Part shown: in pieces, positions 3,001 to 62,658 of the stretch
Position numbering within the stretch: position 1 is the first letter of the stretch
Layout of the letters: each line of letters begins with the position of its first letter
Virus record (IMG/VR): IMGVR_UViG_3300025697_000014
Span: 20,952-84,951 of that record
Source: a virus
Strand: one strand, 5' to 3'
Length of the DNA: 64,000 nt
Notes under the pieces: generated by a model
Told to the model about the DNA's origin: nothing
Seen by the model: only the letters and a program-made list of their open reading frames with translations
Database searches by the model: none
Made by a program: the position numbers and the translations under genes

Positions 3001-5177
3001 CAGATCTCGCTAACCAAACCGGTGAGACGGCGTTCTGGAATCCACATCTGCCCTGGTGCTAGACCTGGTAGGGCCTGTATCTTACCACCAAAGCCAGGTG
3101 CTCTACCACCCATAGCAGCTTGACGTATTCCAGCACTAGATGTTTGCTTTGCAAGCTCTGTTTCGTATGATCCAACAGCTTCCATAGCCTCCGCAAGAGA
3201 CTGTGGGTCTTGTAGAAGCTCGTTCTGCGCAATCTTACCGAACATCTCTGGAATCATTCTTGAGAGGCCAGAAACCCTCTGTTCTACATCGTCGCGTCCA
3301 AACCTCCGCATTACATCACCAGGGTTGGGTACAATCAATGGCCCACTTCTGCCGTACCTGTCTGGTAGACTGAGTCTGATACCAGAGGTGCCAGTGTACT
3401 CATCGAGAATAGCCATCGTCTGAGCTTCTACACCGTAGGCATTAGCATCTTCTTTGAGGCCGAGCTGGTTAGCTTCTGTTGCTCTATCGGCAGCTTCTGC
3501 CTGGATAGCAGACCAGTCACCGAGTATTTCGTTCCCTGAGACAGTCTTATAGTACGGGGCTTGCCCGTGCATAGCTGCTGACGCACCTAGTATTGATGCT
3601 GCTGTTGCCCTTGAGTCTATGCTAGCGTGTCTTATTGCGGAAACGCGGTCCTCGTCATGCATGCTAATGTCAGACATAACTTCTGGTGATACATAGCGAG
3701 AGTCAAACTGAAAGATTCCTCTTGGTTGCTCTCCGAGGTTCTCGTATATTCCAAAGCCAGTGAACTTGACCTGCGCCCGTCGCATTCCCTCTTCTGTTAT
3801 CTCTGAGCCAGGTACAATGCTTGCAAGACCCGCATCCCTCAAGGCTTGGATATGAGGATCGGGGTTGTTCGTAGGACCAAGGTATGCCTGTTGGGTAAAG
3901 GAGTATTGTGCAATACGGCCCTGTTCGCTCAGACCTTTCCACAAGCCTCTGACCTCTTTCTGGCCAAGCTCCTTTGGAGCGTAGCCAAGAACGTCAGTGA
4001 ATTGCTTGGGAGTCCATGTAGAGGTCACAGCAGCCATAGCTAGAGCTGCTTCGTTGACCTGTGTAATGTGAGCGGGTTGGATAGACCTTCCACCAAAGGT
4101 AACGTCCCAATCCTGCATTGTGGGATCTGCGACAGCTACTGTCTTCGAGCCAAGCCCCTTCATAGAGAAGGGATCTTTAGACATGCCCTCATATTCAATG
4201 ACGAGGTTATTTCTATCAAAGCCGTAGTTCTGGATTCTAACTTGGTCCTGATTCTTGATACGGGTGGAGATTCCAGGCGCAATATTGAGCATACCGCTGG
4301 CGTCTAGATCAATGACATCACCGACGTTAAACTCAGGAGTGAACCCCTCGCGCTGCATCTCTGAAGGTACTGGAATGTTAGCGTACTTATTGGTTAAGAT
4401 ACCACCGGTTTGCATAAGGTCGATTTGTGACTGGCCCTCTGGTAACACAGAGCCGCCGATCATCATAAGCGTAGGAACGTTCTGGGTAGTCCTTATGTCT
4501 AGAGAGGCTTGCTCTAAAGGAAGATTCGCGAAGTGTCCGAATGTTTGCTCAGCGATGGCCTTCTTCTGTCTAGTTGCAGCCTTACCTAGATCTGAGCCAA
4601 AGAATATCTCGTCTCCCCTTACATCAATACCAGGAATCCTACCAAGCCGTGACGTTGGCATGATAAGAGAACCCATACGAGTTTGGGTTGATGGATCGTA
4701 TTGTTCACCGTAGTTAAACTGACTACCCTCTAGGTGGCTGATGTCAGGGGGTAGCTGTCGATACATAGCACGCATCTGGCTTGTGCCGTGTGTCCAAGCC
4801 CAAGGATCAACAGAGCCTCGTTGTACCATCTCACCAGGTGCTGTATGCTGACCCTGGACCCTTACCTGAAACGGGGTACCGAATTGTTTCTGCGCAGCAG
4901 CTTGGACTTCTCCAAGAGTAGCTTGCCCGATGGTCATTGGAGAACTACCACCACCGATCTCAGTGCTGCCAAAACGAGAAACGACCTCGCCGCCCACAGT
5001 TGTGTAGTGAGCGGTAGGGCCGTATAGATCTTCTAGATATCCACGCGCCATACCGATGTCAACGCCGTATCTGCGTGTAGTAGCAGCAGCAAAGTTTCTA
5101 GCTTCTTCGGTTTGCCACGCTTCGTCAGGTGTTAGATCTTGTAGAGGAATAGAGTTACGCGAACGACCAACAGCCAT
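1..5177 (-). CDS. Tape measure protein with N-terminal two-barrel (DPBB) RNA polymerase-like domain; 3'-truncated by window edge (>1725 aa)
   Basis: ATG at 5177 overlaps the upstream stop (TAATG). The frame is open wherever I translated it (MAVGRSRNSIPLQDL...) and the ORF track lists no stop-terminated ORF in it. It lies directly after tail tube and chaperones. Beta'-like motifs GIRQAAMGGRAPG...GQMWIP, RYP and GDKDDD; Ala/Gly-rich distal part. Confidence 0.8.
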   Translation of the reverse strand, partial: MAVGRSRNSIPLQDLTPDEAWQTEEARNFAAATTRRYGVDIGMARGYLEDLYGPTAHYTTVGGEVVSRFGSTEIGGGSSPMTIGQATLGEVQAAAQKQFGTPFQVRVQGQHTAPGEMVQRGSVDPWAWTHGTSQMRAMYRQLPPDISHLEGSQFNYGEQYDPSTQTRMGSLIMPTSRLGRIPGIDVRGDEIFFGSDLGKAATRQKKAIAEQTFGHFANLPLEQASLDIRTTQNVPTLMMIGGSVLPEGQSQIDLMQTGGILTNKYANIPVPSEMQREGFTPEFNVGDVIDLDASGMLNIAPGISTRIKNQDQVRIQNYGFDRNNLVIEYEGMSKDPFSMKGLGSKTVAVADPTMQDWDVTFGGRSIQPAHITQVNEAALAMAAVTSTWTPKQFTDVLGYAPKELGQKEVRGLWKGLSEQGRIAQYSFTQQAYLGPTNNPDPHIQALRDAGLASIVPGSEITEEGMRRAQVKFTGFGIYENLGEQPRGIFQFDSRYVSPEVMSDISMHDEDRVSAIRHASIDSRATAASILGASAAMHGQAPYYKTVSGNEILGDWSAIQAEAADRATEANQLGLKEDANAYGVEAQTMAILDEYTGTSGIRLSLPDRYGRSGPLIVPNPGDVMRRFGRDDVEQRVSGLSRMIPEMFGKIAQNELLQDPQSLAEAMEAVGSYETELAKQTSSAGIRQAAMGGRAPGFGGKIQALPGLAPGQMWIPERRLTGLVSEIWGKEDFGGDRLREEFKTPAEAARAMLMGETEMIPDVFALRYPSASPLHSQTRLRPQTLKQLGSALGRPVTLAESSMVPASVSSRFAEAHEGDKDDDPVDIDAGLASQMPRTQAELNRAVAGMAARSGELAKTKRKIANAPRSAEEAYKYAAGMLQSTSLAKFGEESFAIEERMGRIGPLFQAFRRAIPMGIEAQAAGTSQQARAMRISEDMITQVAGPLYGLSVDARTLPKAADELARHLSSYNVKTRGFARGEGPGFVRDLLSSEVGLMRELGQSEEISMSGGVFAGMFIGTGDKNFEEVAGLYESGAKTSELVRAIGAGKTQREVISTAPWLTAVVASGYAKAAGEDPEWAENLDEWGTGMVEKGSAARTYRSLLSRGRGKQAIGAGEFAKVTGTMIEGGMLSSLRAETDTEVLRSMGVLPTDESTEYPGLLQATNFAQRSKRESVVDRLVSAMSQEEKATMIGPQLQQAVSGDRFEDVRRTVLADYPYDPNDPGSEKAAFGRMVQASHENVTSAESDWRQRPLRAAHTRAVQANDMEAARNVNAYSESMGMTLGDQGQNRYLKYIQDQGASGSGGGGGTGSTASAAADPSAQNPSATGQAVLNRRAQAILGDMKQFAGGESVPFSQATTVAGQTTSYTRMVKGQVSQSALESVGILGGDQENLDRMKSAYQSALSGGTPSTKAEMQAASSLGSYLTAVKRVASDVSGPRGLERGYRDAADQLMKDMKASGMDTTQFREAFGNLAQATRGTDFSYASARLDEAGAAVGIGDTSNRAIQEAQGVARTYRERGKASGVSTGAVPRNMADVESELAEVTQNLIGSRRALNSATSDTTKAEQEMIATMVDKTAMGDITRLSKEAFGIGGVAGLSGFVGSKDFQMSMGMMGGGGGGGGGDGAAADGDQWWLGAATGIKRLFSPFSPQGAMVKAAWRTAVGPAFKEGIPAYGQSAFRDFRMAGMAGPVDSGGVGGGGGDILAAQSQRQLNVLASGQAAQEAWGW

Positions 5178-5467
5178 TATTTTCCTCCGCTAGAAAGCAA
5201 GTCCCTAATATCGGTAATGGCATTAAGAAAGAGCTTCTTCTCATCAATCTCCCGCTGACTACGCTCCATTTTCTCTCCGATAGCAGCAGCGGAAATGTCT
5301 CTCATAAACGAACGGGGCTGGTCTGTCCAGCCCCCTCCATTTGGTAGTCCATAAGAATCAACGTATCGTTTCCAGTAGAGGGAGTCGGGAACAGTCTCAA
5401 ATTGCTGTAGTCCACCCTTGCCATCTGGTAGTGGATCACCGTGCTCCCAACAACAGAAGGCGAACAC
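5177..5467 (-). CDS. Tail assembly chaperone, downstream (gpT-like) part; probably reached by frameshift
   Basis: Between chaperone and TMP. Frame is open upstream to about 5536, across the chaperone stop; GTG start has only a 3-nt SD spacing. Confidence 0.6.
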   Translation of the reverse strand: MFAFCCWEHGDPLPDGKGGLQQFETVPDSLYWKRYVDSYGLPNGGGWTDQPRSFMRDISAAAIGEKMERSQREIDEKKLFLNAITDIRDLLSSGGK

Positions 5468-5510
5468 ATTCTCCTCAATCTCTTTGAGCCTCCGTCTGTG
5501 TTCCTTATGG

Positions 5511-5981
5511 TCAAAACGTGGTTGCCCAGTGTGGGGCTACCTCTAGCGTCCTGATGTACCAGAAATCGATAACTGGTGTAGGAACAAGCGCGATCATCTT
5601 AGCGAAATCACCACGACTCATGTTACCGTTCTGGTCGAAGGCAATCTCGTCAAACAGGACCTCTTTGTGTTCCTTGTCCCATAGCAAACGTCCGTCGTCA
5701 TCTCTGCGAGGGACGGAAATTTCCAAGTCAGTTCCACCAAAGCATAGGTAGATTTCGTGCTGGATTGTACTCAAGTACCTGTCACCGTCCTCGCGAACAG
5801 TCGCCATGTGCTCCCTACGAGCACGATCTGTGCCGAATGTTGGAGGAACAATACGCACCCAGACATTGCTTAGCGCCGGGTATGGATTCTCCCAGTCCTT
5901 GATAGGCTCTCCAAGAGAGTCCTTTGGATGCTGGATGAGCTTCACTTCCTGCGGATAAAAGTCGCTGATCTTGACAGACAT
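5511..5981 (-). CDS. Tail assembly chaperone (gpG-like)
   Basis: 156 aa, GAGGA RBS, canonical position after tail tube gene. Confidence 0.6.
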   Translation of the reverse strand: MSVKISDFYPQEVKLIQHPKDSLGEPIKDWENPYPALSNVWVRIVPPTFGTDRARREHMATVREDGDRYLSTIQHEIYLCFGGTDLEISVPRRDDDGRLLWDKEHKEVLFDEIAFDQNGNMSRGDFAKMIALVPTPVIDFWYIRTLEVAPHWATTF

Positions 5982-12367: not shown

Positions 12368-13902
12368 GTCTTTTGATCTCCTTTGTTACTGCCCATATGA
12401 TTTGAATCCCTTGATGCAAGCTCTCCAGAGGAACCAGTGCCGCCAAAGGCGGGACCAGGTTGTCCTTCAATTTCCTGCACCTGTTTCTTCCATGTCTTTA
12501 TTCTACTCAATTCTGCGGAAACGTCAATGATACCACCTAACATTGTTATTGCGGTCTCAGGTGACAGTATATCTGCTTGCACTCTGTTGATAACAGAAGT
12601 CACCTCTTCTAGAACATCACGCGGCATCATGGGGTACCAACCTACTCGTACCTTGGCATTCTTTGCCATATCAGTTGTGATACCGTACATATCTTTGTCA
12701 GCTGCTATGAATAGCATTGTCTTACATATCTTTGCTATAGCAGTTGTGAATGCGGAGCGTTCTTCTCCTATGTGTTTGACGAGGGGAATGGCGCGTAGGG
12801 CCAGTGACGCTGCGCTACGTTGTGAACCATCGTCGTCACCAAATACTACTGGTGGACAGTATGCTTCTGATCGTGCAATGTCTCGTAGGCTATAGACATA
12901 CTGGCCAGCGCTTTGTGCTGAAGAGCCTCTGTTGGGTGGATAGATTACCTTTGGTTCTCTGTTACCCTGAGCGAAGCCAAGGTCTATAACGGGCTTCACG
13001 CCACTGATACGCTTTACCTCTGCATTACGTACGTTGGTGAGCGCAGGCATGTTCGTTGCCTCTTCAGAGACGATGTCTCCTACATCTACCAAGCGGGCGT
13101 TGATTTCCTTGGACATCTCCCACTTGTTCTTCAGGAGACTCGTACCATAGAAGCCGCGCCTGGGTGGATGCGGTATATAGACATAGGGTATCCGGTGAGC
13201 AATTGGTGCACCCTCAGCCTTGCTGGCATACCAGGTTACTGTCTTGTTGTCTACACTGATCCTGTACTTGCCCTCTGTCCAATCTTCTACGTATAGCCCG
13301 ATATCGCTGTCGATCTCGACTCCTAGATCCCTAGCTTGGATCTTAGAAATCCCGTAGGCAACAATGACCTGAAGCATACGATCTAGGTTGTTGTGGCTCC
13401 AGACAGGGTTGAAATACTTGGGGTTCACTGTCTGTAGAGCAACGGGAATCTGGAAATCAACCGCACGCTCTGGTACATAGAACGCTCCTAGAGTACAACC
13501 ACCGTAGATCTGACTGTCGAGTGCGGCAACAGACAGCTTGCTGCGACTATCGTTCTCTTCCCAGATTGTGCGCAGAAACTGTGTCATCTTGTCAGCGGCG
13601 TTCATGGCAACATCGGTAGTGGCCTTAGCACCATTCTTCCATACCTCTACAGTAGGATCAACAGAAGATAGCGCTCCATCAGGCACCTCACCAAACAAGA
13701 AGGCTGTATGCATCACAGTAGGTAGCTCAAACACGTTATACCCAAGAGGGTACATCAATGTATCAGAACGTTCTGATACCGTCTCCCTCAACCAACTTCC
13801 GCTGAAATGCTCCTCATACTCTCGATAGTATGCCATCTGTCGATCCCAGTCGATGTATGGATAGCCTTCATTGCTTCCCAACACCTGATTTAATAGTATC
13901 AT
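12364..13902 (-). CDS. Portal protein
   Basis: 512 aa after TerL; IPYVYIP...FYGTSLL, SQRSAASL, W.PMMPRD and ILSPETAI motifs of SPP1-like portals. Confidence 0.8.
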   Translation of the reverse strand: MILLNQVLGSNEGYPYIDWDRQMAYYREYEEHFSGSWLRETVSERSDTLMYPLGYNVFELPTVMHTAFLFGEVPDGALSSVDPTVEVWKNGAKATTDVAMNAADKMTQFLRTIWEENDSRSKLSVAALDSQIYGGCTLGAFYVPERAVDFQIPVALQTVNPKYFNPVWSHNNLDRMLQVIVAYGISKIQARDLGVEIDSDIGLYVEDWTEGKYRISVDNKTVTWYASKAEGAPIAHRIPYVYIPHPPRRGFYGTSLLKNKWEMSKEINARLVDVGDIVSEEATNMPALTNVRNAEVKRISGVKPVIDLGFAQGNREPKVIYPPNRGSSAQSAGQYVYSLRDIARSEAYCPPVVFGDDDGSQRSAASLALRAIPLVKHIGEERSAFTTAIAKICKTMLFIAADKDMYGITTDMAKNAKVRVGWYPMMPRDVLEEVTSVINRVQADILSPETAITMLGGIIDVSAELSRIKTWKKQVQEIEGQPGPAFGGTGSSGELASRDSNHMGSNKGDQKT

Positions 13903-15521
13903 TGTATTGACCTCACTGAAGATCTCCTGTTGTTGATAATGCGTCCCCTAGACAACCTGCTGACCTCGCGTACCTCACCCTCGTCCAGATCCGTCGTCTC
14001 ACCTTCAACGAGGGGTAGAGTCTGATTCAGGATATACCCGATTATGAAGAGACAAGATGCGATGTCCTGGCGAAGCTGCTTGTCTGGCATGTGCCACATA
14101 AGTAGCTGGTTCCACACACTGTAGAGAGATTTGGGTATTTGGACAAACCCGCGCCCCATGAGAACCTTGAGACAGAGTACCATGTGCATCTTGAGTCCAC
14201 TCATATTGATTGGTGACCATAGACGGTCCTGATTCAAGACCGCAAGATCATCAAAGGCCTTCTGGGTACCCGTAGCATCAAAGCCAGCATAGTACGGGTT
14301 GTATTCCGTATAAGCAGCTTCCATTGCATTCAGGAATGGCCAGTATGAGCCATAGCCGTATACCCATTTGAATGATGCGAGAGTTGCGGGTTGCTTGGGG
14401 AAGTCGGTAACGTCAAACACCATAACTACCCCGCTATTGCGGTAGGGCGGGTTGCCCTGGCCAGGATCTCCAGCAAGGATGTAAAGATGTCCTCTCTGTG
14501 CTGGTAGTGACCATGTGACGGCCCCGGTGTTGGTAGCAGACTCCAGGAAGTATCCCGGCATACCAGCTGCGAGTGCGTCATTCATGATGGCATCTAGGCC
14601 ATCGCTCTGAGACATAACGATCAGATTCTGTGTGAACTCCTTACCCTTCGGAAGCGGGCGAACGGAGTGCATCAAACGCTGGGCCTCGTCCTTATCCCTA
14701 AACCTACGCTTGATATCACGCAAACTCTTCTCAGTCAGGTAAGGATTGTCATAGGAAGTAAGTAGTAGAGCTAGTCGTTCTGGATCAGCCTCGTAGTCAT
14801 CATACGTCTCCCACAATACAGGATTGTACGCACTGTTGGCCATAAGGACCATCTTACCCAAACGTGCTCTTCCACCGATCTGACCACGCAAACGAGTACC
14901 AAGGTTACCCATCACAGTTTCTAGGTCGATGGACTGGTCCTCTGCCTGGTCAACAACAGCCATGTCACCACTCCAGGTCATGATACCGCTAGCGTCACGG
15001 TCAATGGATTTGAACTCCATCGTAGAGCCGTTAACGAACTCTATCATAGGTTGGGGGCGCATACGAACATTCTTGATCCACTTGGTGATCCTGCGCTCGG
15101 CACCGAGATTATTGTCCCAGTCTATTGCGAATTGCAAGAACTCTCTGTATGAGAGGTCTGCCTGCCAGGACTTGGGGGCAGTACCGAGATAGCGAAAGTT
15201 TGGTAGCATACAGCATAGGTATCCCGCCACAAGAACCATGTTCAATGTTTTACCACATCCAATCGCGCCAATCATGATGATGTCAGAGTGGCCATCGAAT
15301 ACGATATCACTTGCCCATGGAAGCGGTTGAACAGGAACGAACTGCCCCTGGAGTAGAGGTGATGGAAACTTATCAGATGCAATACCAATCAGATCGGTAC
15401 GTGCATCCTTCTCTAGTCCTCCTATAGGAGCGCTCCAGAACTGCCAAAAGAGATCGATACCACCAGTCTCTCTTGACCGCGAAAGCTCCATAATCTCCAG
15501 TTCGATCTCTGATAAAAACAT
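13899..15521 (-). CDS. terL: Terminase large subunit
   Basis: Walker A GAIGCGKT, Walker B AVVDQAE, SYDNPYL; nuclease acidic residues GDPG, FDATG and QD. Confidence 0.9.
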   Translation of the reverse strand: MFLSEIELEIMELSRSRETGGIDLFWQFWSAPIGGLEKDARTDLIGIASDKFPSPLLQGQFVPVQPLPWASDIVFDGHSDIIMIGAIGCGKTLNMVLVAGYLCCMLPNFRYLGTAPKSWQADLSYREFLQFAIDWDNNLGAERRITKWIKNVRMRPQPMIEFVNGSTMEFKSIDRDASGIMTWSGDMAVVDQAEDQSIDLETVMGNLGTRLRGQIGGRARLGKMVLMANSAYNPVLWETYDDYEADPERLALLLTSYDNPYLTEKSLRDIKRRFRDKDEAQRLMHSVRPLPKGKEFTQNLIVMSQSDGLDAIMNDALAAGMPGYFLESATNTGAVTWSLPAQRGHLYILAGDPGQGNPPYRNSGVVMVFDVTDFPKQPATLASFKWVYGYGSYWPFLNAMEAAYTEYNPYYAGFDATGTQKAFDDLAVLNQDRLWSPINMSGLKMHMVLCLKVLMGRGFVQIPKSLYSVWNQLLMWHMPDKQLRQDIASCLFIIGYILNQTLPLVEGETTDLDEGEVREVSRLSRGRIINNRRSSVRSIQ

Positions 15522-20659: not shown

Positions 20660-21183
20660 AGCTCTCTCCCTTCTTCCCCATTCCAGTCCTGGAAGAAAAG
20701 GTTGTCCCTTTTCTCGAAGATAGTGATATTGGATTCGTCCTTGTTTACCTCTATTGTCCTGATAGATGGCGAGAACTGCTTCAGGAATGCGACGATGTTA
20801 TCTACGTCCTGTGTGCGCCTAGTATCGTGGAAAGCTAGCTTGCCTCCAATTTTCAGTAGAGGCCATGCGTTAAATGCGAACTCGCGTCGTTTGTCATCGA
20901 CTCCATCATCAAAGATGAGATCGTAGCCACTACCCTTTCTCTCCATGTATTGTTGGTATGTAACAATCTCTATCTCACGTATGTCTAGATCTGAGAGACG
21001 CTTATTGGTGGTCTCAATCCAGTAAGGATCGGTTTCAACCGATTTCATAGGACATGTAGAATAAGCAGCCATCACCTGTGTAGACGCTCCACATCCAAAC
21101 TCTAGGATGCTGGTTGCTTCACAGGCAAGCTTACGTAATACCACAGCGTCTGCTTTACTGATATCGCCAATGTACGGGATCAT
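20644..21183 (-). CDS. Class I SAM-dependent methyltransferase
   Basis: ILEFGCGAST, YDLIFDDG, LKIGG..AFHD; start ATG 21183 with GGAGG. Confidence 0.85.
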   Translation of the reverse strand: MIPYIGDISKADAVVLRKLACEATSILEFGCGASTQVMAAYSTCPMKSVETDPYWIETTNKRLSDLDIREIEIVTYQQYMERKGSGYDLIFDDGVDDKRREFAFNAWPLLKIGGKLAFHDTRRTQDVDNIVAFLKQFSPSIRTIEVNKDESNITIFEKRDNLFFQDWNGEEGRELWQIR

Positions 21184-45309: not shown

Positions 45310-45702
45310 ATGAATGTTTTACTGGCGTTTTCAGTACTACTGGCGGGTTGGGCAAGTCAATATGGCCCGGGTGTGATGGACTCTGTGATCCGTGTACGAC
45401 AAGCGGGCAGGACAGTTATGACGCTGCCTATGGAGTTGCCTGATACTGATGGCTATGTAGCGATGGTGGAGTGTGATCGTATCGGGGATATCGTTTACTT
45501 ACGGCCTTTGGGAGACGAGGTGTTTGAGTCGTTCTTAGTGGTGGATTGCTCAGGACATGATGAGACTACTGACTGGATGGAGCGCAACAACATTCTAGTG
45601 GAGGTGGATTACGAGACAGCCCTACGATGGGATACAATTGGCCACGGTCAACAGATCGAGATGAAGCAAGCCGATGAGTACATAACGTTCTGCGCACAAT
45701 AG
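45310..45702 (+). CDS. RlpA-like double-psi beta-barrel protein (possible cell-wall lytic function)
   Basis: GWASQY.PGVM, VAM..C..IG, FLVVDC, VEVD; hydrophobic N-terminus. Confidence 0.45.
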   Translation: MNVLLAFSVLLAGWASQYGPGVMDSVIRVRQAGRTVMTLPMELPDTDGYVAMVECDRIGDIVYLRPLGDEVFESFLVVDCSGHDETTDWMERNNILVEVDYETALRWDTIGHGQQIEMKQADEYITFCAQ

Positions 45703-50150: not shown

Positions 50151-50678
50151 ATGATTAACAGAGAAGGACTACATGGACACCCGTTGTACTTTGAACTCCT
50201 GGAGCAGCTTGAAGAGGAGTGTGATGCAATTCCAATGGAGAAGCATACATACGAGCGGCTTACTCTCCAGTTTGAGAGTTCGTGTTGGTGGGCAATCGAG
50301 GAACGTGAACCTGTCTGGTTCTATGTTGCTCTTGAGGGGTTGGGGTTCTTGATAGAGATATCTGGTGATAACGATGTACACCAGATCCTACAAGATATGG
50401 CGCAGCTACACAGCGACAAGAATGCAGGGTATGCTGGCCACCAGAACGAGAACCCACTAGCTAACTTCTATGCCTCAGAAGAGTACATAGGTATCAGCGC
50501 ATATCACGGATGCCTCGTCCGTCTGTGTGATAAGTATGAGAGGATCAAACATCTTCGAGAGAACCCTGCCAATGACAAGGTGAACGAGTCAATCATTGAT
50601 ACTACTAGGGATCTCATTGCGTATGCATTGATTGCTGCTATTCTGCTAGAGGAGTCTGGAGAGGGAGACGAGGAATGA
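50151..50678 (+). CDS. DUF1599-like (nucleotide-modification-associated) domain protein
   Basis: KNAGYAG..NPLANF...RLCDKYERI...NESIIDT..DLIAYALI. Confidence 0.65.
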   Translation: MINREGLHGHPLYFELLEQLEEECDAIPMEKHTYERLTLQFESSCWWAIEEREPVWFYVALEGLGFLIEISGDNDVHQILQDMAQLHSDKNAGYAGHQNENPLANFYASEEYIGISAYHGCLVRLCDKYERIKHLRENPANDKVNESIIDTTRDLIAYALIAAILLEESGEGDEE

Positions 50679-54100: not shown

Positions 54101-54514
54101 TCTTGGAAAGTACGAGTATAAGGTAGAGCTGATCCCCGAGTACTCCATCACGATGGGGACAGTATGCGGCCTAACTGGGGTGTCTTGCAGCTACGTAGTT
54201 ACTATCTTCAAGTCTATGGACGAGGCTAGACTGGCGGCACGAGAGGTTGCTTTTGAGCTAGCGAATACAGTACCCGGCGATCTCATCGCAAAGAGTAACG
54301 ATAAGGTGAAGGCCGAGTGGCTAGTGCGTCTGTTGCAGACAGAACCTGCAATGTGTGAGACAGAGGACTTGTTGAACTGTATTCCAGCACACAAGCTTCT
54401 GTCATCTACCCATCAACCACATATGAACATCGTTTGGATGACGAAAGATCTTACACGAGCACTGGGCTGGTCGTCAATAGGTAAACCAATTCTATACGTT
54501 CAGTAGGAGGAAAC

Positions 54515-54745
54515 ATGTTGCGTATCGCAGGACAAGGAACCACGAAGACCGTTAGTGTCAACCCGGGCACCACACTTGAGGATGCCCTCAGTATGGTTGG
54601 CCTGGAATATCTACCCACCATCTCGTACCGAACATCAGAGGGAACGCTGAATCGAACATCAACTGTTCCCACCAGCGGCGTAGTTGTGTTCGCAAAGGCG
54701 GAGGCAAATGGGTCTGTGTCTGTTTTGCCTAAATCAGGGCAGTAG
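54515..54745 (+). CDS. Ubiquitin-like (beta-grasp) protein
   Basis: 76 aa, TVSVNPGTTLEDAL helix, VVVFAKAEANG then a 10-aa extension; AGGAGG RBS; first gene of E2-JAB-E1 operon. Confidence 0.7.
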   Translation: MLRIAGQGTTKTVSVNPGTTLEDALSMVGLEYLPTISYRTSEGTLNRTSTVPTSGVVVFAKAEANGSVSVLPKSGQ

Positions 54746-55595
54746 GATTGGCGCTAACTCGCTGAACCTATTTCTATGCGACGAGCACTATTTCTATGGT
54801 GCTCGTCTTCTTTTGAACGAGTTCAATGTACGGAACTGGTTTGAAAGCGAAGAGTTTAGGTTTAACGTACCAGGTGACATCATCTACAAGGATGATCTGT
54901 ATGAGTTCCCAGATATACAGGTATCAGTCGGACGTAGGGATGGCTGGACATACGTACATATGGATGGTACTGATGAGAGTGAACATCCGCATCTGGACTC
55001 GGCTGGAGAGATGTGCCTTGGAGGCAATGGTGATCTTCTACAGAAGTACGCTGAGCAAATGAACTGGGAATCGTTCTATGCAATAGCGCTCATTTCTGGA
55101 GGATTGTATACGCAAGACGACGCCTTCAGACCATTAGTCACTTGTGAAGCTTGTGATGCTGGAGATCAAGAGATGATTGTGTGCCCCAACTGCGGGGCCA
55201 ATGTATGTGTGTACTGTTATCATTCGGAATTAGAGGTTTGTGCCCTATGTGCAAACAAGTGCTCAAACTGTGGAGGTGTTTATGGTGAAGCTGACAAGGG
55301 GATGGCGTGCGATCTTTGCGGGACGGAACTCTGTCCCAAATGTGCCTACACCGAGTACGACGAAGAAACGGATGAAGCCATTGGTAGGGTATGCTCATAC
55401 CATGCAACCTACGACAACCGGGGCGTTGTTAGATCTACCGGCAAATTTGTTCGCGGCCCTGACGAAGTGGCAGGCCGCGCACCTGGCGGAGATCTCGGGG
55501 TACGGACTAGTGACGGAGGGGAGAGTCAGGAAACTGTGGCTGACAGCGAGGGGGACGCCCGGAGGAGTGGAGACGAGCGCAGCATCCCATTCTAA
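54708..55595 (+). CDS. Prokaryotic E2 (UBC-like) enzyme with C-terminal Cys-rich Zn fingers
   Basis: HPHLDSAGEMCLGG active-site pattern; multiple CxxC. Confidence 0.75.
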   Translation: MGLCLFCLNQGSRIGANSLNLFLCDEHYFYGARLLLNEFNVRNWFESEEFRFNVPGDIIYKDDLYEFPDIQVSVGRRDGWTYVHMDGTDESEHPHLDSAGEMCLGGNGDLLQKYAEQMNWESFYAIALISGGLYTQDDAFRPLVTCEACDAGDQEMIVCPNCGANVCVYCYHSELEVCALCANKCSNCGGVYGEADKGMACDLCGTELCPKCAYTEYDEETDEAIGRVCSYHATYDNRGVVRSTGKFVRGPDEVAGRAPGGDLGVRTSDGGESQETVADSEGDARRSGDERSIPF

Positions 55596-56085
55596 GGTGC
55601 TGCTACAAGCTATTGAGGCAGGGTATGATTACCTGAACCTCCAATGGCACACACACTACAACCTCACACCATACTTCTCGTCCACTGACAACCGTGCACA
55701 AGAAGAGCTATGCGAGGAAGCTGAAACACAGCAAGAGATGTACTACCTATGTTTGGACGGGATGTCAGCGGTAGCAAGACTGTTTGATATTCCAGGTAAG
55801 ACATACGTGGATGGGTCTGTATCAATCGACGGGGTAATTCTACCCGGTAAAGAGGAAATATCGTTTGGAGGTGGAGGATATGGACCTGTCTCGACAGGCT
55901 TTACTCATCCCAGCGCACGCAATAGGGGAACTAACGTTCTTGATAATAGGGCTAGGGTCAATCGGGTCGAATGTCGCGAATGTCTTGAGCAGAATGGGTG
56001 CAAGTACGCAGACCTGGTACGACAGGGATATTACTTCTCTGGAAAATGTGGCTCCGGCTTTTTCTGGCATCAACTCAATTGGTGA
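55372..56085 (+). CDS. JAB/MPN+ (JAMM) metallopeptidase
   Basis: EISGYG...QWHTHYNLTPYFSSTD (E...HxH-x7-S-x2-D); start 55372 or 55402. Confidence 0.85.
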   Translation: MKPLVGYAHTMQPTTTGALLDLPANLFAALTKWQAAHLAEISGYGLVTEGRVRKLWLTARGTPGGVETSAASHSKVLLQAIEAGYDYLNLQWHTHYNLTPYFSSTDNRAQEELCEEAETQQEMYYLCLDGMSAVARLFDIPGKTYVDGSVSIDGVILPGKEEISFGGGGYGPVSTGFTHPSARNRGTNVLDNRARVNRVECRECLEQNGCKYADLVRQGYYFSGKCGSGFFWHQLNW

Positions 56086-56575
56086 TACGAAAGTAGACAC
56101 CGCGTATGCCAGGATACAGCAAGACCTCGGAGAAGAGGAGGTCAAGAATATCAGAGCATATCCATACTTCTATAAGAACCAACGCGAACACGCCGACATC
56201 GTCATTGTCGGCGTGGACAGTATGGAGGTACGCCGGGAGATCTGGGCTAACAATAGGATCGAAGGCTGGAAGCTCTGGATCGACGGTAGAATGGGTGAGG
56301 ACCAAGCTGGCTTGTATATCGTTCGAGAGAATGACGACTATGAATGGTATGAGGAGAGTCTAGCTCGGCCAGGTGCGGAGCTAATGTGTGGAGAGAAAGC
56401 TACAGCTCCCATCTGCGCAGGTCTGATACCCGGTATGGTAGGCTCTGTCATCATGCGGTATGTGAACGGACTAACCGTACCGCAAAGTATCTTCGTGAAG
56501 ATGCTACTGGACTTTGGGATGTTCTTCTCAGTAGGAGAGGGGGAAGTATGCTCTGCAACAGACGATACTACGTAA
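55880..56575 (+). CDS. ThiF/MoeB-family E1 activating enzyme
   Basis: SRQ, IIGLGSIGS, YDRD...EN, KVD, VGVDSMEVR, DGRM, candidate catalytic Cys in ELMCGEKAT; GGAGG RBS. Confidence 0.9.
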   Translation: MDLSRQALLIPAHAIGELTFLIIGLGSIGSNVANVLSRMGASTQTWYDRDITSLENVAPAFSGINSIGDTKVDTAYARIQQDLGEEEVKNIRAYPYFYKNQREHADIVIVGVDSMEVRREIWANNRIEGWKLWIDGRMGEDQAGLYIVRENDDYEWYEESLARPGAELMCGEKATAPICAGLIPGMVGSVIMRYVNGLTVPQSIFVKMLLDFGMFFSVGEGEVCSATDDTT

Positions 56576-57228
56576 GTGTAGACGATCTGGAGATTGAGAT
56601 CCCCGTCGAGTTCCACGGAGAGCTTGACGACGATCTATGGAGCTGGAATGGCGAGGAGTTCTCATATGCTGTTCCAGATCTGGAGTCCGGGTGTGATCCT
56701 GATTCCACCGAGGAAGATGTTATAGCTTGGGGACTCGGTGACGTATGGTGTGTGATTAAAGTACGGACAGATGTCAATGGAGTAGCAAATACATCTAGTG
56801 CTACATGGCCGTACTTTGGACGTGAAGCGGCAAGTAAAGAGGTGAATGCATGAAGGTAGTCGGAGGAGTTAACTGGTACGAGTGTCCTCAGTGTTCAAAG
56901 AAAGACGAGCGCCGATTTGTGCGCGTGGCCTTTGACATCAGAGACCTGGGATTCATCAGAGTGTGGGGTCTCAAGAAGAAACTGTCGTGCCCTAGTGGGC
57001 ACACCCACATGGTAGATATCACAGGATAGCTATGAACCTTATAGCCTTCGTCATATAGCTAATAGGAGCGGCGTTCATTGTTAGTGAGATCACAGTAGAG
57101 AAAGGTCTAGTACTGGTGCTGTGGTCGCTGTTGTTTGTCATAGGGACAGTTGCGGATAAGAAAAAGTGGTGGTGAGAGCTAGGCTATCGCCTAGTAGTAG
57201 ATAAGTTACTTAGTTCAGGGAGGAAAGA

Positions 57229-61640: not shown

Positions 61641-61955
61641 ATGAAGAAAAATGGCTGGCCTAAGATTGCAGGACTACACACAGTGCTGCTGGGTCTGCAC
61701 GGGGCTGACCTGTTGACGACTTCTATGGTGTCACCTGGACAAGAGGCCAATCCGCTTATGAGAAACCTGTGGATTAACGGAGGCTTCAGTATGATGATTT
61801 TAGCTAAAGCAGCCTCATGGATGCTTATGCTTGCTTACTATCTAGCCATACTAAAATGGTTACCCGGATTCGAGAAATCAATATGGGTAAGTCAGTTCAT
61901 TGGATTGGTTGCGATGGTTGCATTAGTTGGATGGAATATTCATATGGTGTTTTAG
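61641..61955 (+). CDS. DUF5658-like membrane protein
   Basis: DLLTT...GQEANPLMR with three TM segments. Confidence 0.6.
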   Translation: MKKNGWPKIAGLHTVLLGLHGADLLTTSMVSPGQEANPLMRNLWINGGFSMMILAKAASWMLMLAYYLAILKWLPGFEKSIWVSQFIGLVAMVALVGWNIHMVF

Positions 61956-61977
61956 AATTGCTAGGAGACCGGTAGAT

Positions 61978-62658
61978 ATGGATAGCGTAAACATACTGTA
62001 TGATAGAGTAATCATTTGGGGCGGCACTGGTATTTGCAAACAAGCTAAACCTGTCATCGAGCACTATGGCTCGAAGGTGATAGCTATCTTCGATGACACA
62101 GACATAGAGCCACCCTTTGATGATGTACCACTATACAAGGGGTGGGAAGGCTTTGCGAAATGGCGACAAAAGCTCTATAGAGAACATGATCTATACAACA
62201 ACATAGGCTTCCTGGTTGCCGTTGGAGCACCACATGGAGAAGCCCGCCTACGTATTCATAATCAACTCAAGCACGAGGGACTGTTACCCATCACACTGTG
62301 TCACCCTTCGTCCGTCGTCTTCCCAGATGTAACTATAGGAGAAGGGTGTCATATCATGGCACATGCCGTACTTGGTCCTGCTGCTGTCTTGGGTAAGCAG
62401 GTTCTCGTCCATACCAGCGCTAACATCACACACGACTGCGTGCTGGAAGATTGTGCCACCGTTGCTCCTAATGGCACATTGTGTGGAGACGTACATCTTA
62501 AACCCAGGGCATGGGTATGTGCTGGTGCCACAGTGCTACCAGGGCTTACCATTGGCTCCGGTGCCGTTGTCGGCGCAGGTGCTACCGTTACTCGTGATGT
62601 ACTGGCAGGCGAGGTCGTAGTAGGAATCCCAGCTAAACCCCTACACCGCAAAGTGTGA
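61978..62658 (+). CDS. NeuD/PglD-family sugar acetyltransferase
   Basis: N-terminal IIWGGTG, hexapeptide repeats, ITHDC, VVGIPAKP. Confidence 0.9.
   Translation: MDSVNILYDRVIIWGGTGICKQAKPVIEHYGSKVIAIFDDTDIEPPFDDVPLYKGWEGFAKWRQKLYREHDLYNNIGFLVAVGAPHGEARLRIHNQLKHEGLLPITLCHPSSVVFPDVTIGEGCHIMAHAVLGPAAVLGKQVLVHTSANITHDCVLEDCATVAPNGTLCGDVHLKPRAWVCAGATVLPGLTIGSGAVVGAGATVTRDVLAGEVVVGIPAKPLHRKV

Follow-up and report, generated by a model that had tools for sequence, protein, structure and literature searches.

A four-gene cassette in a salt-lake bacteriophage resembles a ubiquitin-like protein-conjugation cascade

The window analyzed here is the whole stretch of 64,000 nucleotides that corresponds to positions 20,952 to 84,951 of the virus record IMGVR_UViG_3300025697_000014. 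This record is a complete phage genome of 84,951 bp with direct terminal repeats, and its source is a salt-lake bacteriophage of ~85 kb. Within positions 54515-56575 of the window, four overlapping genes on the + strand occupy ~2.1 kb and encode, in this order, a ubiquitin-like protein (Ubl), an E2 with zinc modules (E2-Zn), a JAB peptidase and an E1. An initial annotation had recognized these genes, and all four open reading frames are indeed present at these positions. The Ubl, E2, JAB and E1 motifs that it quoted are all found, and they are invariant among homologues. The features of the cassette, in window coordinates, are as follows.

54515..54745, + strand: Ubl gene, 76 aa; ATG at 54515 after the ribosome-binding site AGGAGG, TAG ending at 54745
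54515-54712, + strand: Ubl beta-grasp domain, residues 1-66, ending in invariant A-E-A-N-G66
54713-54742, + strand: 10-residue Ubl tail SVSVLPKSGQ, present in this phage only among the homologues compared
54708..55595, + strand: E2-Zn gene, 295 aa; ATG at 54708 with GGAGG upstream
54717-54788, + strand: N-terminal zinc knuckle of E2, CxxC...CxxH
54780..54807, + strand: hairpin with a perfect 12-bp stem and a U-rich tail (terminator-like hit)
54984-54992, + strand: HPH93-95 of E2, in the UBC-like core
55014-55016, + strand: candidate catalytic Cys103 of E2
55143-55403, + strand: two tandem binuclear cross-brace zinc modules of E2, C146-H232
~55416-55592, + strand: disordered, non-conserved E2 tail, lying over the JAB gene
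55282..56085, + strand: JAB/JAMM metallopeptidase gene; most likely start ATG 55282 with GGAGGT at -4 (Shine-Dalgarno scan and strain variants)
~55423-55880, + strand: conserved domain of JAB
55489-55491, + strand: catalytic Glu of JAB
55648-55689, + strand: H-T-H-x7-S-x2-D of JAB
55880..56575, + strand: minimal E1, a ThiF-type adenylating enzyme of 231 aa; ATG at 55880 with GGAGGTGGAGG upstream
55949-55966, + strand: GxGxxG of E1
56216-56218, + strand: Asp113 of E1
56387-56389, + strand: invariant crossover-loop Cys170 of E1

The cassette had been placed just before the replication module, and genes for SSB, a resolvase-like nuclease, DnaB helicase and primase do follow directly downstream. 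It had also been stated that thiamine, molybdopterin and cysteine synthesis genes are absent nearby; no Pfam match to them was obtained with 10 ORFs between 52191 and 62658, a set that does not include every ORF. In the same partial Pfam scan, none of the neighboring ORFs scanned belongs to the rhodanese, cysteine desulfurase, TtuA/ThiI-type or other sulfur-insertion families, or to the CD-NTase family. No integrase family was detected among the ORFs scanned, which again are only part of the total. A promoter scan of the region gave only background-level signals. A blastn search of the region against 50,697 phage records produced no matches, and neither did tblastn searches of these records with E2 or with a 540-aa ORF at 13899-15521. 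This ORF adjoins the portal gene and is a TerL candidate by position only. The phage also encodes, at 50151-50678, a protein with a nucleotide-modification domain.

The 76-aa product of the first gene was previously suggested to be a beta-grasp protein, and its AF2 model (pLDDT 83.5), Foldseek, VIA and an Atlas model all bear this out. Foldseek retrieves SUMO2, BilA, TtuB and ubiquitin, each with a probability of 1.00. According to VIA, the Ubl matches TtuB with a Z score of 8.2 (rmsd 2.2, 61 residues) and ubiquitin with a Z score of 7.2, and SUMO and BubA are also structural matches in the Z range of 7-8. The Atlas model has a TM score of 0.6-0.7 to ThiS/MoaD and SUMO. The Pfam ThiS and ubiquitin models do not match the Ubl, for which the sole Pfam hit is TUG-UBL1 (E 0.17), and no match was found in PHROGs, NCBIfam or PADLOC.

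In each of the homologues compared (10/10), the last residues are A-x-A-E-(S/A)-N-G, with Gly66 invariant and terminal. These homologues require no trimming because they already end at Gly66. The additional tail of the phage protein is disordered in the AF2 model and would block activation unless removed. Because all 10 homologues stop at Gly66 and only this phage adds a tail, trimming by JAB at this residue is strongly implied, and the earlier prediction of cleavage after Gly66 thus has strong backing.

The start of E2-Zn at ATG 54708 is supported by the homologue alignment, which disfavors an alternative start at TTG 54684. Within its family alignment (A1, 11 members), P55, HPH93-95, C103, G105, Y134 and 14 Cys residues are invariant. 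The AF2 model of the protein has a pLDDT of 71. For residues 10-139, the Foldseek and VIA matches are almost wholly E2, UEV and RWD domains, with middling Z scores of 5.3-7.1 and alignments of about 100-110 residues for most E2 entries (75-111 overall). A CBASS E2 and Cap2 are within these fold matches (Z 5.9-6.2). At the sequence level, solved E2s are matched only weakly (E 0.03-1). A profile of the E2 core hits no solved proteins other than E2s, of which two entries are UBE2W and one is a different ubiquitin-conjugating enzyme. In this alignment, "hPHVySNGhICL" of UBE2W pairs with "hPHvdssGemCl" of the phage protein, such that HPH-x7-Cys103 falls on the HPH...Cys91 site of UBE2W. The initial description of this protein as an E2 with HPH-x7-CLG and a Cys-rich domain therefore agrees with a UBC-superfamily fold whose invariant HPH...Cys aligns on the UBE2W catalytic site.

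The family to which E2-Zn belongs has no name and is rare, being represented by 11 clusters in 1.8 billion proteins. Neither the E2 protein nor any of the 11 family members is hit by the Pfam UQ_con or Prok-E2 models at E<=1. E2 is likewise unmatched by the Bil and Bub models and by PHROGs, NCBIfam and PADLOC. The E2-Zn protein has no clear relative among the predicted viral structures of BFVD, and a word-based homologue search with E2 returned only the query itself. In the Atlas, feature matches of E2 to the UQ_con and E2-CBASS clusters reach 0.78-0.80 and serve merely as leads.

The zinc region of E2-Zn contains eight CxxC/H pairs with the spacing CxxC-x9-12-CxxCGxxxCxxC-x7-16-CxxC/H, which is FYVE/HIT-like and not that of a canonical RING. 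Profile matches of the zinc modules include zf-HIT (2.9e-4), HOIP RING1 (8e-4), other RINGs (0.05-1.4) and FYVE. Fold matches of the region are FYVE, Rabphilin and RIM fingers with Z scores of 5.4-6.0 (the domain was not folded alone).

For the third gene, starts at ATG 55372 or 55402 are ruled out by one natural strain variant in which both are lost. The assignment of its product as a JAMM peptidase with HTH-x7-S-x2-D is upheld by the invariance of the E, HxH, S and D residues in an alignment of three lineages, and by a match to the PADLOC JAB model (5e-5). The Pfam Prok-JAB match (0.005, 17.1 bits) is below the gathering cut-off of 25. The JAB protein has a K/R-rich N-terminal extension overprinted on the E2 zinc fingers and a C-tail of 68 codons overprinted on the 5' end of the E1 gene; neither is conserved in sequence.

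The product of the fourth gene had been called a ThiF E1 with a candidate catalytic Cys, which is consistent with a Pfam ThiF match of 1.3e-12 (47.8 bits versus a cut-off of 28.1). Residues G24, G26, G29, K71, D113 and Cys170 are invariant in its alignment (A4). Cys179 was rejected as the catalytic residue because, unlike Cys170, it is not conserved. Further features are an N-terminal LSRQ (Arg present), a DxD and Lys71. The ATP-site Arg of the (S)NLxRQ motif is absent; the corresponding motif is E-N-(V/L)-x-P, and each of the three lineages has the Pro. In NCBIfam comparisons the E1 is similar to ThiF/MoeB, and in PADLOC its best 25 matches are all CBASS E1-E2 models (5e-11). Among PDB entries it matches Cap2 (7tsq) at 0.004.

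Overlaps of 200-300 nt between the genes are seen in every lineage. No insertions or deletions occur across 54400-56700 in four independent salt-lake runs, and this absence of indels from independent assemblies excludes assembly errors as the source of the frame changes and overlaps. Up to ~55420, the differences between strains are synonymous for E2, and from 55426 they are synonymous for JAB, which indicates that both frames are under purifying selection. The phage recurs with an intact cassette in at least 14 salt-lake runs. The hairpin at 54780-54807 begins 35 nt past the Ubl stop codon, within the E2 ORF, with a smaller hairpin on each side (54741-54826). Its RNA fold z-score is -5.45, and 0 of 200 shuffled sequences fold as well. 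It is absent from the equivalent place in two of the related loci described below (L008 and L006). This element may attenuate read-through after Ubl, which has not been shown.

The same four genes are present in the same order in L008, a 68-kb phage-like contig, and in the related loci L004-L007. Protein identities to these loci are 34% for Ubl, 25-29% for E2, 27-36% for JAB and 39-48% for E1, and the genes that flank the cassette differ from those in the present phage. At least three related but divergent lineages have kept the cassette as a unit. A second E2-Zn family, sister to the first (hhalign 99.7%, E 2e-25), is present on a 160-kb IMG/VR viral contig, where a small ThiS-like ORF is located upstream of E2-Zn, and JAB and E1 are located downstream. 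Proteins of this sister family also occur on contigs of 946 kb and 515 kb. Scans for related loci were empty for E1 and P0002 (viral), P0002 (metagenome), P0004 and P0019 (genomes) and P0030 (viral).

The carrier of the cassette is a phage, and this fact, like the folds, motifs, gene order and conservation, is directly supported. With a probability of roughly 0.75, we propose that the cassette is a working, phage-owned Ubl protein-conjugation cascade, whose chemical steps and targets are all inferred. JAB presumably trims the 76-aa Ubl precursor after Gly66, which would then be adenylated by the minimal and probably homodimeric ThiF-type E1. The E1 may carry Ubl as a thioester on invariant Cys170 before its predicted transfer to Cys103 of E2, part of an HPH-x7-Cys site arranged as in canonical E2s of the UBE2W type. 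More speculatively, the zinc knuckle of E2 and its pair of FYVE/HIT/RING-like modules might select or hold a partner, in which case a separate E3 would be unnecessary. Ubl would finally be attached to target proteins, and JAB might also reverse or edit the conjugates.

The location of the cassette among early/middle and replication genes, together with the inheritance of all four genes in related phages, suggests that it acts in the infected cell at takeover. We think, by inference, that its targets at this stage are host proteins, including those of defense, or the phage's own replication-stage proteins, and that it is not a bacterial-style defense. A more specific and only tentative idea is that a lineage of environmental phages has a self-sufficient machinery akin to ubiquitination, in which the E2 selects substrates through its own zinc modules as an E2-E3 hybrid, and that the phage uses it offensively, tagging host defense or replication factors, for example, during takeover.

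The cassette might instead serve in competition between phages, as a Bil-like defense that tags structural proteins of co- or superinfecting phages and spoils their assembly. Phages are often carriers of defense genes. The E1 and JAB proteins are nearest to defense-system models in PADLOC, and the component set and gene order equal those of BilA-B-C-D, a system that conjugates its own Ubl to a phage tail fiber (10.1101/2023.09.04.556158; 10.1101/2023.09.26.559546). However, none of Ubl, E2 and JAB hits the PADLOC Bil models, a set that includes BilD, at E<=1, and the E1 is a single domain of 231 aa, unlike two-domain BilD. The cassette is also co-oriented with the phage early/replication block in which it is embedded, without an integrase in the partial ORF scan, and it is a stable core unit of several related phages and not a variable island. 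We therefore regard such competition as unlikely.

Still less credible is a role in sulfur transfer, in which Ubl would be adenylated and thiocarboxylated in the style of ThiS, MoaD or TtuB for a thio-modified nucleotide, tRNA or cofactor, and JAB would only mature the carrier. Sets of JAB, ThiS and ThiF are known in sulfur pathways (PMC1779556), the sulfur carrier TtuB is the best structural match of Ubl, the E1 has its ThiF/MoeB resemblance, and the phage has the nucleotide-modification domain protein noted above. Yet every cassette includes an E2 with invariant HPH...Cys, which is useless to sulfur pathways, no sulfur-insertion family was found among the neighboring ORFs scanned, and the Ubl C terminus is N-G, unlike the usual G-G. 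Finally, the tail that is restricted to this phage, and the lack of sequence conservation in the E2 tail, JAB extension and JAB tail, could reflect a decaying or inert remnant with drifting frames, in which loss of the stop codon after Gly66 means that Ubl can no longer be activated. Bil Ubls with overhangs of 2-9 residues are nevertheless processed by the Bil JAB (10.1101/2023.09.04.556158; 10.1101/2023.09.26.559546). The intact catalytic residues, the purifying selection in both overlapping frames and the recurrence of the intact cassette also speak against decay, for which we see very little room.

To date, comparable sets of Ubl, E2, protease and E1 have been investigated solely as defenses of bacteria against phages, whereas the present set is owned by a virus. 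Bacterial Ubl conjugation is currently seen as an anti-phage weapon, as in Bil, Bub and CBASS Cap2, and protein tagging is used by eukaryotic viruses. A phage-owned cascade that several lineages inherit as a unit would mean that bacterial viruses also use protein tagging. If the cassette is used offensively, it would be the first virus-side prokaryotic Ubl conjugation system with a canonical HPN-type E2. The fusion of E2 to RING/FYVE-like zinc modules could provide a compact model for combining E2 and E3 functions. Because the system is small (four proteins) and comparison defines the Ubl terminus, direct reconstitution is possible.

Such a cassette is not described in any paper that we found on phage-encoded Ubl/E1/E2 systems or on crAss/ThiF/ubiquitin. 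The human enzyme UBE2W shares the HPH active-site motif and an aligned catalytic Cys with the phage E2, but identity is only ~10-15% over the fold (E 0.4-1), and there is no evidence of common specificity. In crAss-like phages, crAss001 gp77 and gp76 are an adjacent JAB and ThiF E1 in the replication module, and their JAB motif is similar (HSHNNMATFFSGTD). In this comparison, tblastn with E1 detects 25-30% identity in 46 phage records, and a search of a small local database with profile A4 recovers gp76 at 3.6e-26. However, the N terminus of gp76 is extended by 160 aa of unknown fold, and relatives of E2-Zn or Ubl are undetectable by sequence in crAss-like phages.

Caldiarchaeum subterraneum has a eukaryote-like cascade of Ub, E1, E2, a small RING protein and an Rpn11-like JAB (PMC5654768, PMC3082918). 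Both systems combine in one operon a small Ubl, a JAB, a zinc-finger partner and an E2 with a classical His-Pro-x before Cys. The phage differs, without direct sequence comparison, in that its E2 itself contains the zinc modules, with spacing of the FYVE/HIT type, and is not matched by Pfam UQ_con, and in that its E1 is minimal. In type II CBASS, the E2-E1 fusion Cap2 is the best HMM and PDB relative of the phage E1, and the JAB protein Cap3 is among the best HMM relatives of the phage JAB (5e-5), whereas the phage E2 and E1 are separate genes accompanied by a dedicated beta-grasp Ubl.

Bil systems (BilABCD, types I and II) correspond to operon classes 6d/6c of Iyer et al. 2006. Like the cassette, they encode Ubl, E2, JAB and E1 separately, in the order BilA-B-C-D (10.1101/2023.09.26.559546), and a Ubl with a conserved C-terminal Gly and possibly a short overhang that is cut off by JAB. 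Unlike the Bil E1, which consists of IAD+AAD+CYS, the phage enzyme has one ThiF domain, and the phage Ubl is a single 66-aa domain. The phage E2 is fused to zinc modules and retains the classical HPN-type motif (HPH) that the Bil E2 lacks (PMC1779556). In its active-site motif it is closer than the Bil E2 to eukaryotic E2s. Bil is a bacterial defense locus, whereas the cassette is encoded by a phage and, if used offensively, would be the mirror image of that defense.

The initial annotation placed four overlapping genes of a ubiquitin-like conjugation operon in a phage, just before its replication module, and both gene layout and setting hold. The window (bases 20952-84951) belongs to a viral record of 84,951 bp that has direct terminal repeats and is judged complete. 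The minus strand carries the structural genes, that for the portal among them, as far as about 24 kb; the remainder is a plus-strand early/middle block ending with SSB, a resolvase-like nuclease, a DnaB-type helicase and primase. Four plus-strand ORFs fill 54515-56575, and the SSB gene follows about 650 bases later (E1 stop 56575, SSB start 57229).

Genes of the cassette, with starts refined by ribosome-binding sites, homologue alignment and strain variants
54515-54745, plus strand, Ubl (ubiquitin-like tag)
54708-55595, plus strand, E2-Zn (E2-type enzyme with zinc modules)
55282-56085, plus strand, JAB (JAMM protease)
55880-56575, plus strand, E1 (ThiF-type activating enzyme)

Elsewhere in the block are a hexapeptide-repeat (PglD-like) acyltransferase gene between the helicase and primase genes (61927-62658) and, upstream of the cassette, a gene for a DUF1599 "nucleotide modification associated" domain protein (50151-50678). 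These may hint that the phage modifies DNA or sugars.

The 76-aa Ubl is not recognized by curated sequence models. Its AlphaFold model (pLDDT 83.5, built on 11 sequences) has the order strand-strand-helix-strand-strand-strand, with residues 64-76 disordered, and Foldseek matches it to SUMO2/3, the bacterial BilA Ubl, the sulfur carrier TtuB and ubiquitin, all with probability 1.00. VIA-align gives Z 8.2 for TtuB (rmsd 2.2 over 61/64 residues), 7.2 for ubiquitin, 7.1 for SUMO2 and BubA, and 6.9-7.0 for SAMP1. Independently, the ESM Atlas model built for this sequence matches MoaD/ThiS, RnfH-Ub and SUMO clusters over residues 1-65. Thus, the protein is beta-grasp-like, as had been proposed.

Ten Ubl homologues, some nearly identical, were collected: eight cluster representatives from a profile search and the Ubl ORFs of L008 and L006, two other metagenome loci. 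The sequence A-x-A-E-(S/A)-N-G forms the exact C-terminus of all ten, and only the window Ubl continues past Gly66, by the ten residues SVSVLPKSGQ. In the relatives the stop codon directly follows this Gly and the E2 start lies 4-9 bases further on; in the window phage, the E2 start codon is placed on the Asn65-Gly66 codons. Because every homologue terminates there, Gly66 is, as judged from sequence, the reactive end of the family, and the window phage is predicted to require a trimming step. The cut site suggested earlier for JAB is therefore supported, with cleavage itself inferred.

Three hairpins (54741-54826) lie immediately past the Ubl stop codon, within the E2 ORF, and could set the Ubl-to-enzyme ratio. 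The middle one (54780-54807) has a perfect 12-bp stem, a U-rich tail and an RNA fold z-score of -5.45; no counterpart was found at the same position in L008 or L006. The group resembles other multi-hairpin inter-gene elements of this genome.

Only ten relatives of E2-Zn (28-34% identity), all metagenomic and unnamed, emerged when 1.84 billion cluster representatives were searched exhaustively with HMMER. Invariant in their alignment are P55, H93-P-H95, C103, G105, Y134 and fourteen cysteines. In the model (pLDDT 71), residues about 10-139 form a beta-meander followed by two helices, and nearly every entry in the Foldseek and VIA lists for this core is an E2, UEV or RWD domain (Z 5.3-7.1), among them Rad6, Ubc9, UBE2L3, UFC1, Tsg101, the Ltn1 RWD, a CBASS E2 and Cap2. 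A core-only profile matched just three solved proteins, all E2s. The UBE2W segment hPHVySNGhICL aligns on hPHvdssGemCl of this profile, the alignment ending at chain residues 92-93; it spans the position of Cys91, the UBE2W catalytic cysteine, on which Cys103 falls. Taken singly, these lines are weak (E 0.03-1, with Z values in the middle range), but they agree and the motif is invariant, which upholds the assignment of an E2 with HPH-x7-Cys.

Most members of the E2-Zn family have an N-terminal CxxC...CxxH knuckle. C-terminal to the core, the family alignment reveals eight CxxC/H pairs in two tandem binuclear modules, CxxC-x9-CxxCGxxxCxxC-x7-CxxC and, after x3, CxxC-x12-CxxCGxxxCxxC-x16-CxxH. 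The family profile matches the zf-HIT finger of Vps71 (2.9e-4), HOIP RING1 (8e-4) and, at 0.01-0.1, FYVE fingers and several RINGs and B-boxes. In structural comparison, the second module fits RIM, Rabphilin and FYVE fingers (Z 5.4-6.0). The modules are members of the cross-brace treble-clef group, which includes RING. Because their ligands are spaced as in FYVE and HIT fingers, an E3-like function remains hypothetical.

JAB scores 0.005 with Pfam Prok-JAB, below the Pfam cut-off, and 5e-5 with CBASS JAB models. Its JAMM-site Glu, H-T-H, Ser and Asp are invariant across three lineages (the window phage, L008 and the L004-L007 group), consistent with the JAMM peptidase first suspected. E1 has a clear ThiF domain (1.3e-12), and its closest relatives are Cap2-type E1 domains (PADLOC 5e-11; PDB 7tsq 0.004). 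LSRQ, GxGxxG, DxD, Lys71 and Asp113 are retained, and all three lineages have Pro where the usual NLxRQ motif has Arg. The sole invariant cysteine is Cys170, in (L/M)xCG(E/Q)KATA, whereas Cys179 is not conserved; the expected candidate catalytic cysteine is thus present.

A metagenome scan using one E2 homologue produced five loci, L008 (on a 68-kb contig whose content is phage-like) and the group L004-L007, both with Ubl, E2-Zn, JAB and E1 in the same order. Identity to the window proteins is 34% for Ubl, 25-29% for E2, 27-36% for JAB and 39-48% for E1. Flanking genes differ. A 130-aa protein (window 45310-45702) is about 50% identical to proteins encoded at L008 8023-8505, one to two genes upstream of the cassette, and L006 2751-3149, directly upstream. 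This shows that the three contigs belong to related phages whose gene order has been rearranged.

A broader search revealed a sister family to E2-Zn (about 340-440 aa; hhalign 99.7%, E 2.3e-25), without a Pfam name, that shares the THPHVSDxxLCxGD core, the ETYNPxSPY motif and the Cys-rich end. On a 160-kb viral contig (IMGVR_UViG_3300017989_000057, 7382-11650), a 439-aa member with a very long Cys-rich end is preceded by a 76-residue ThiS-like ORF ending ...APTKVEGE and followed by JAB and E1 (profile 3.8e-31), which again overlap. Two other members, P0032 and P0035, are on contigs of 946,425 bp and 515,704 bp that may be cellular. A weak structural neighbor in the Atlas (TM 0.45) is an unnamed cluster of 2,546 members, mostly Planctomycetota.

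All three lineages have E2, JAB and E1 each in a frame +1 to that of the preceding gene, with overlaps of hundreds of bases.

Overlapping genes
window 54708-55595, 55282-56085, 55880-56575
L008 9974-11772
L006 3425-4779
L007 1-1542

If the starts with the best Shine-Dalgarno support are used, E2 and JAB overlap by 314 nt in the window, 197 in L008 and 190 in L006. At least 14 runs labelled "salt lake metagenome" (2017-2019) contain the cassette DNA (54400-56700). Strain-level substitutions occur, and four independent salt-lake assemblies have no indels. One strain variant differs at 23 bases. Up to about 55420 its changes leave the E2 protein unaltered or conservatively substituted, and from 55426 on they leave the JAB protein unaltered, marking the point at which constraint passes from one frame to the other. 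The JAB frame remains open beyond the E1 start for 68 codons in the window, 90 in L008 and 95 in L007; in this genome, shifted frames stay open for at least 68 codons in 2.8% of trials and at least 90 in 1.2%. In the overprinted stretches of JAB, its extension and tail, conservation does not exceed what the other frame imposes, and we cannot explain the long open JAB frame within the E1 gene.

A working conjugation cascade would account for the set of parts, for the residues that stay invariant and for the inheritance of all four genes together. JAB would trim or deconjugate Ubl, E1 would adenylate it, and a thioester would form on Cys103 of E2 before transfer. Because 10 of 11 Ubls require no trimming, the conserved job of JAB is probably deconjugation or editing. 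A sulfur-carrier pathway is unlikely, because such pathways have no role for an E2 and the neighboring ORFs scanned gave no sulfur-enzyme family match.

The role of the cascade remains open. We favor action on host proteins or the phage's own during takeover, because several related phages have the cassette as a core part of their early/replication block. The main alternative is Bil-like action against competing phages.

Our literature searches found no paper describing a complete phage-encoded Ubl conjugation cascade. A tblastn search with E1 found 46 phage records, nearly all crAss-like Bacteroides phages. Phages of this kind carry adjacent JAB and ThiF/E1 genes, as at the following two loci.

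Adjacent JAB and ThiF/E1 pairs
crAss001 (NC_049977.1) 3268-5666
PQ006092.1 3640-5696

In crAss001, JAB gp77 directly precedes ThiF protein gp76, whose N-terminal extension of 160 aa has an unknown fold. In the searchable literature, the two genes carry only the labels "metalloprotease" and "thiamine biosynthesis protein". The crAss-like phages share JAB then E1 in the replication module, but Ubl or E2-Zn relatives are not detectable in them by sequence. The C-terminal overhang of the window Ubl parallels the 2-9 additional residues on some Bil Ubls, which are removed by the Bil JAB (10.1101/2023.09.26.559546, 10.1101/2023.09.04.556158). The window E2 retains the classical His that Bil-class E2s lack (Iyer et al., PMC1779556). 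What sets this cassette apart is the fusion of a canonical-type HPH E2 to zinc modules, together with a minimal E1, a Ubl terminus that is sharply defined, and conserved overprinting.
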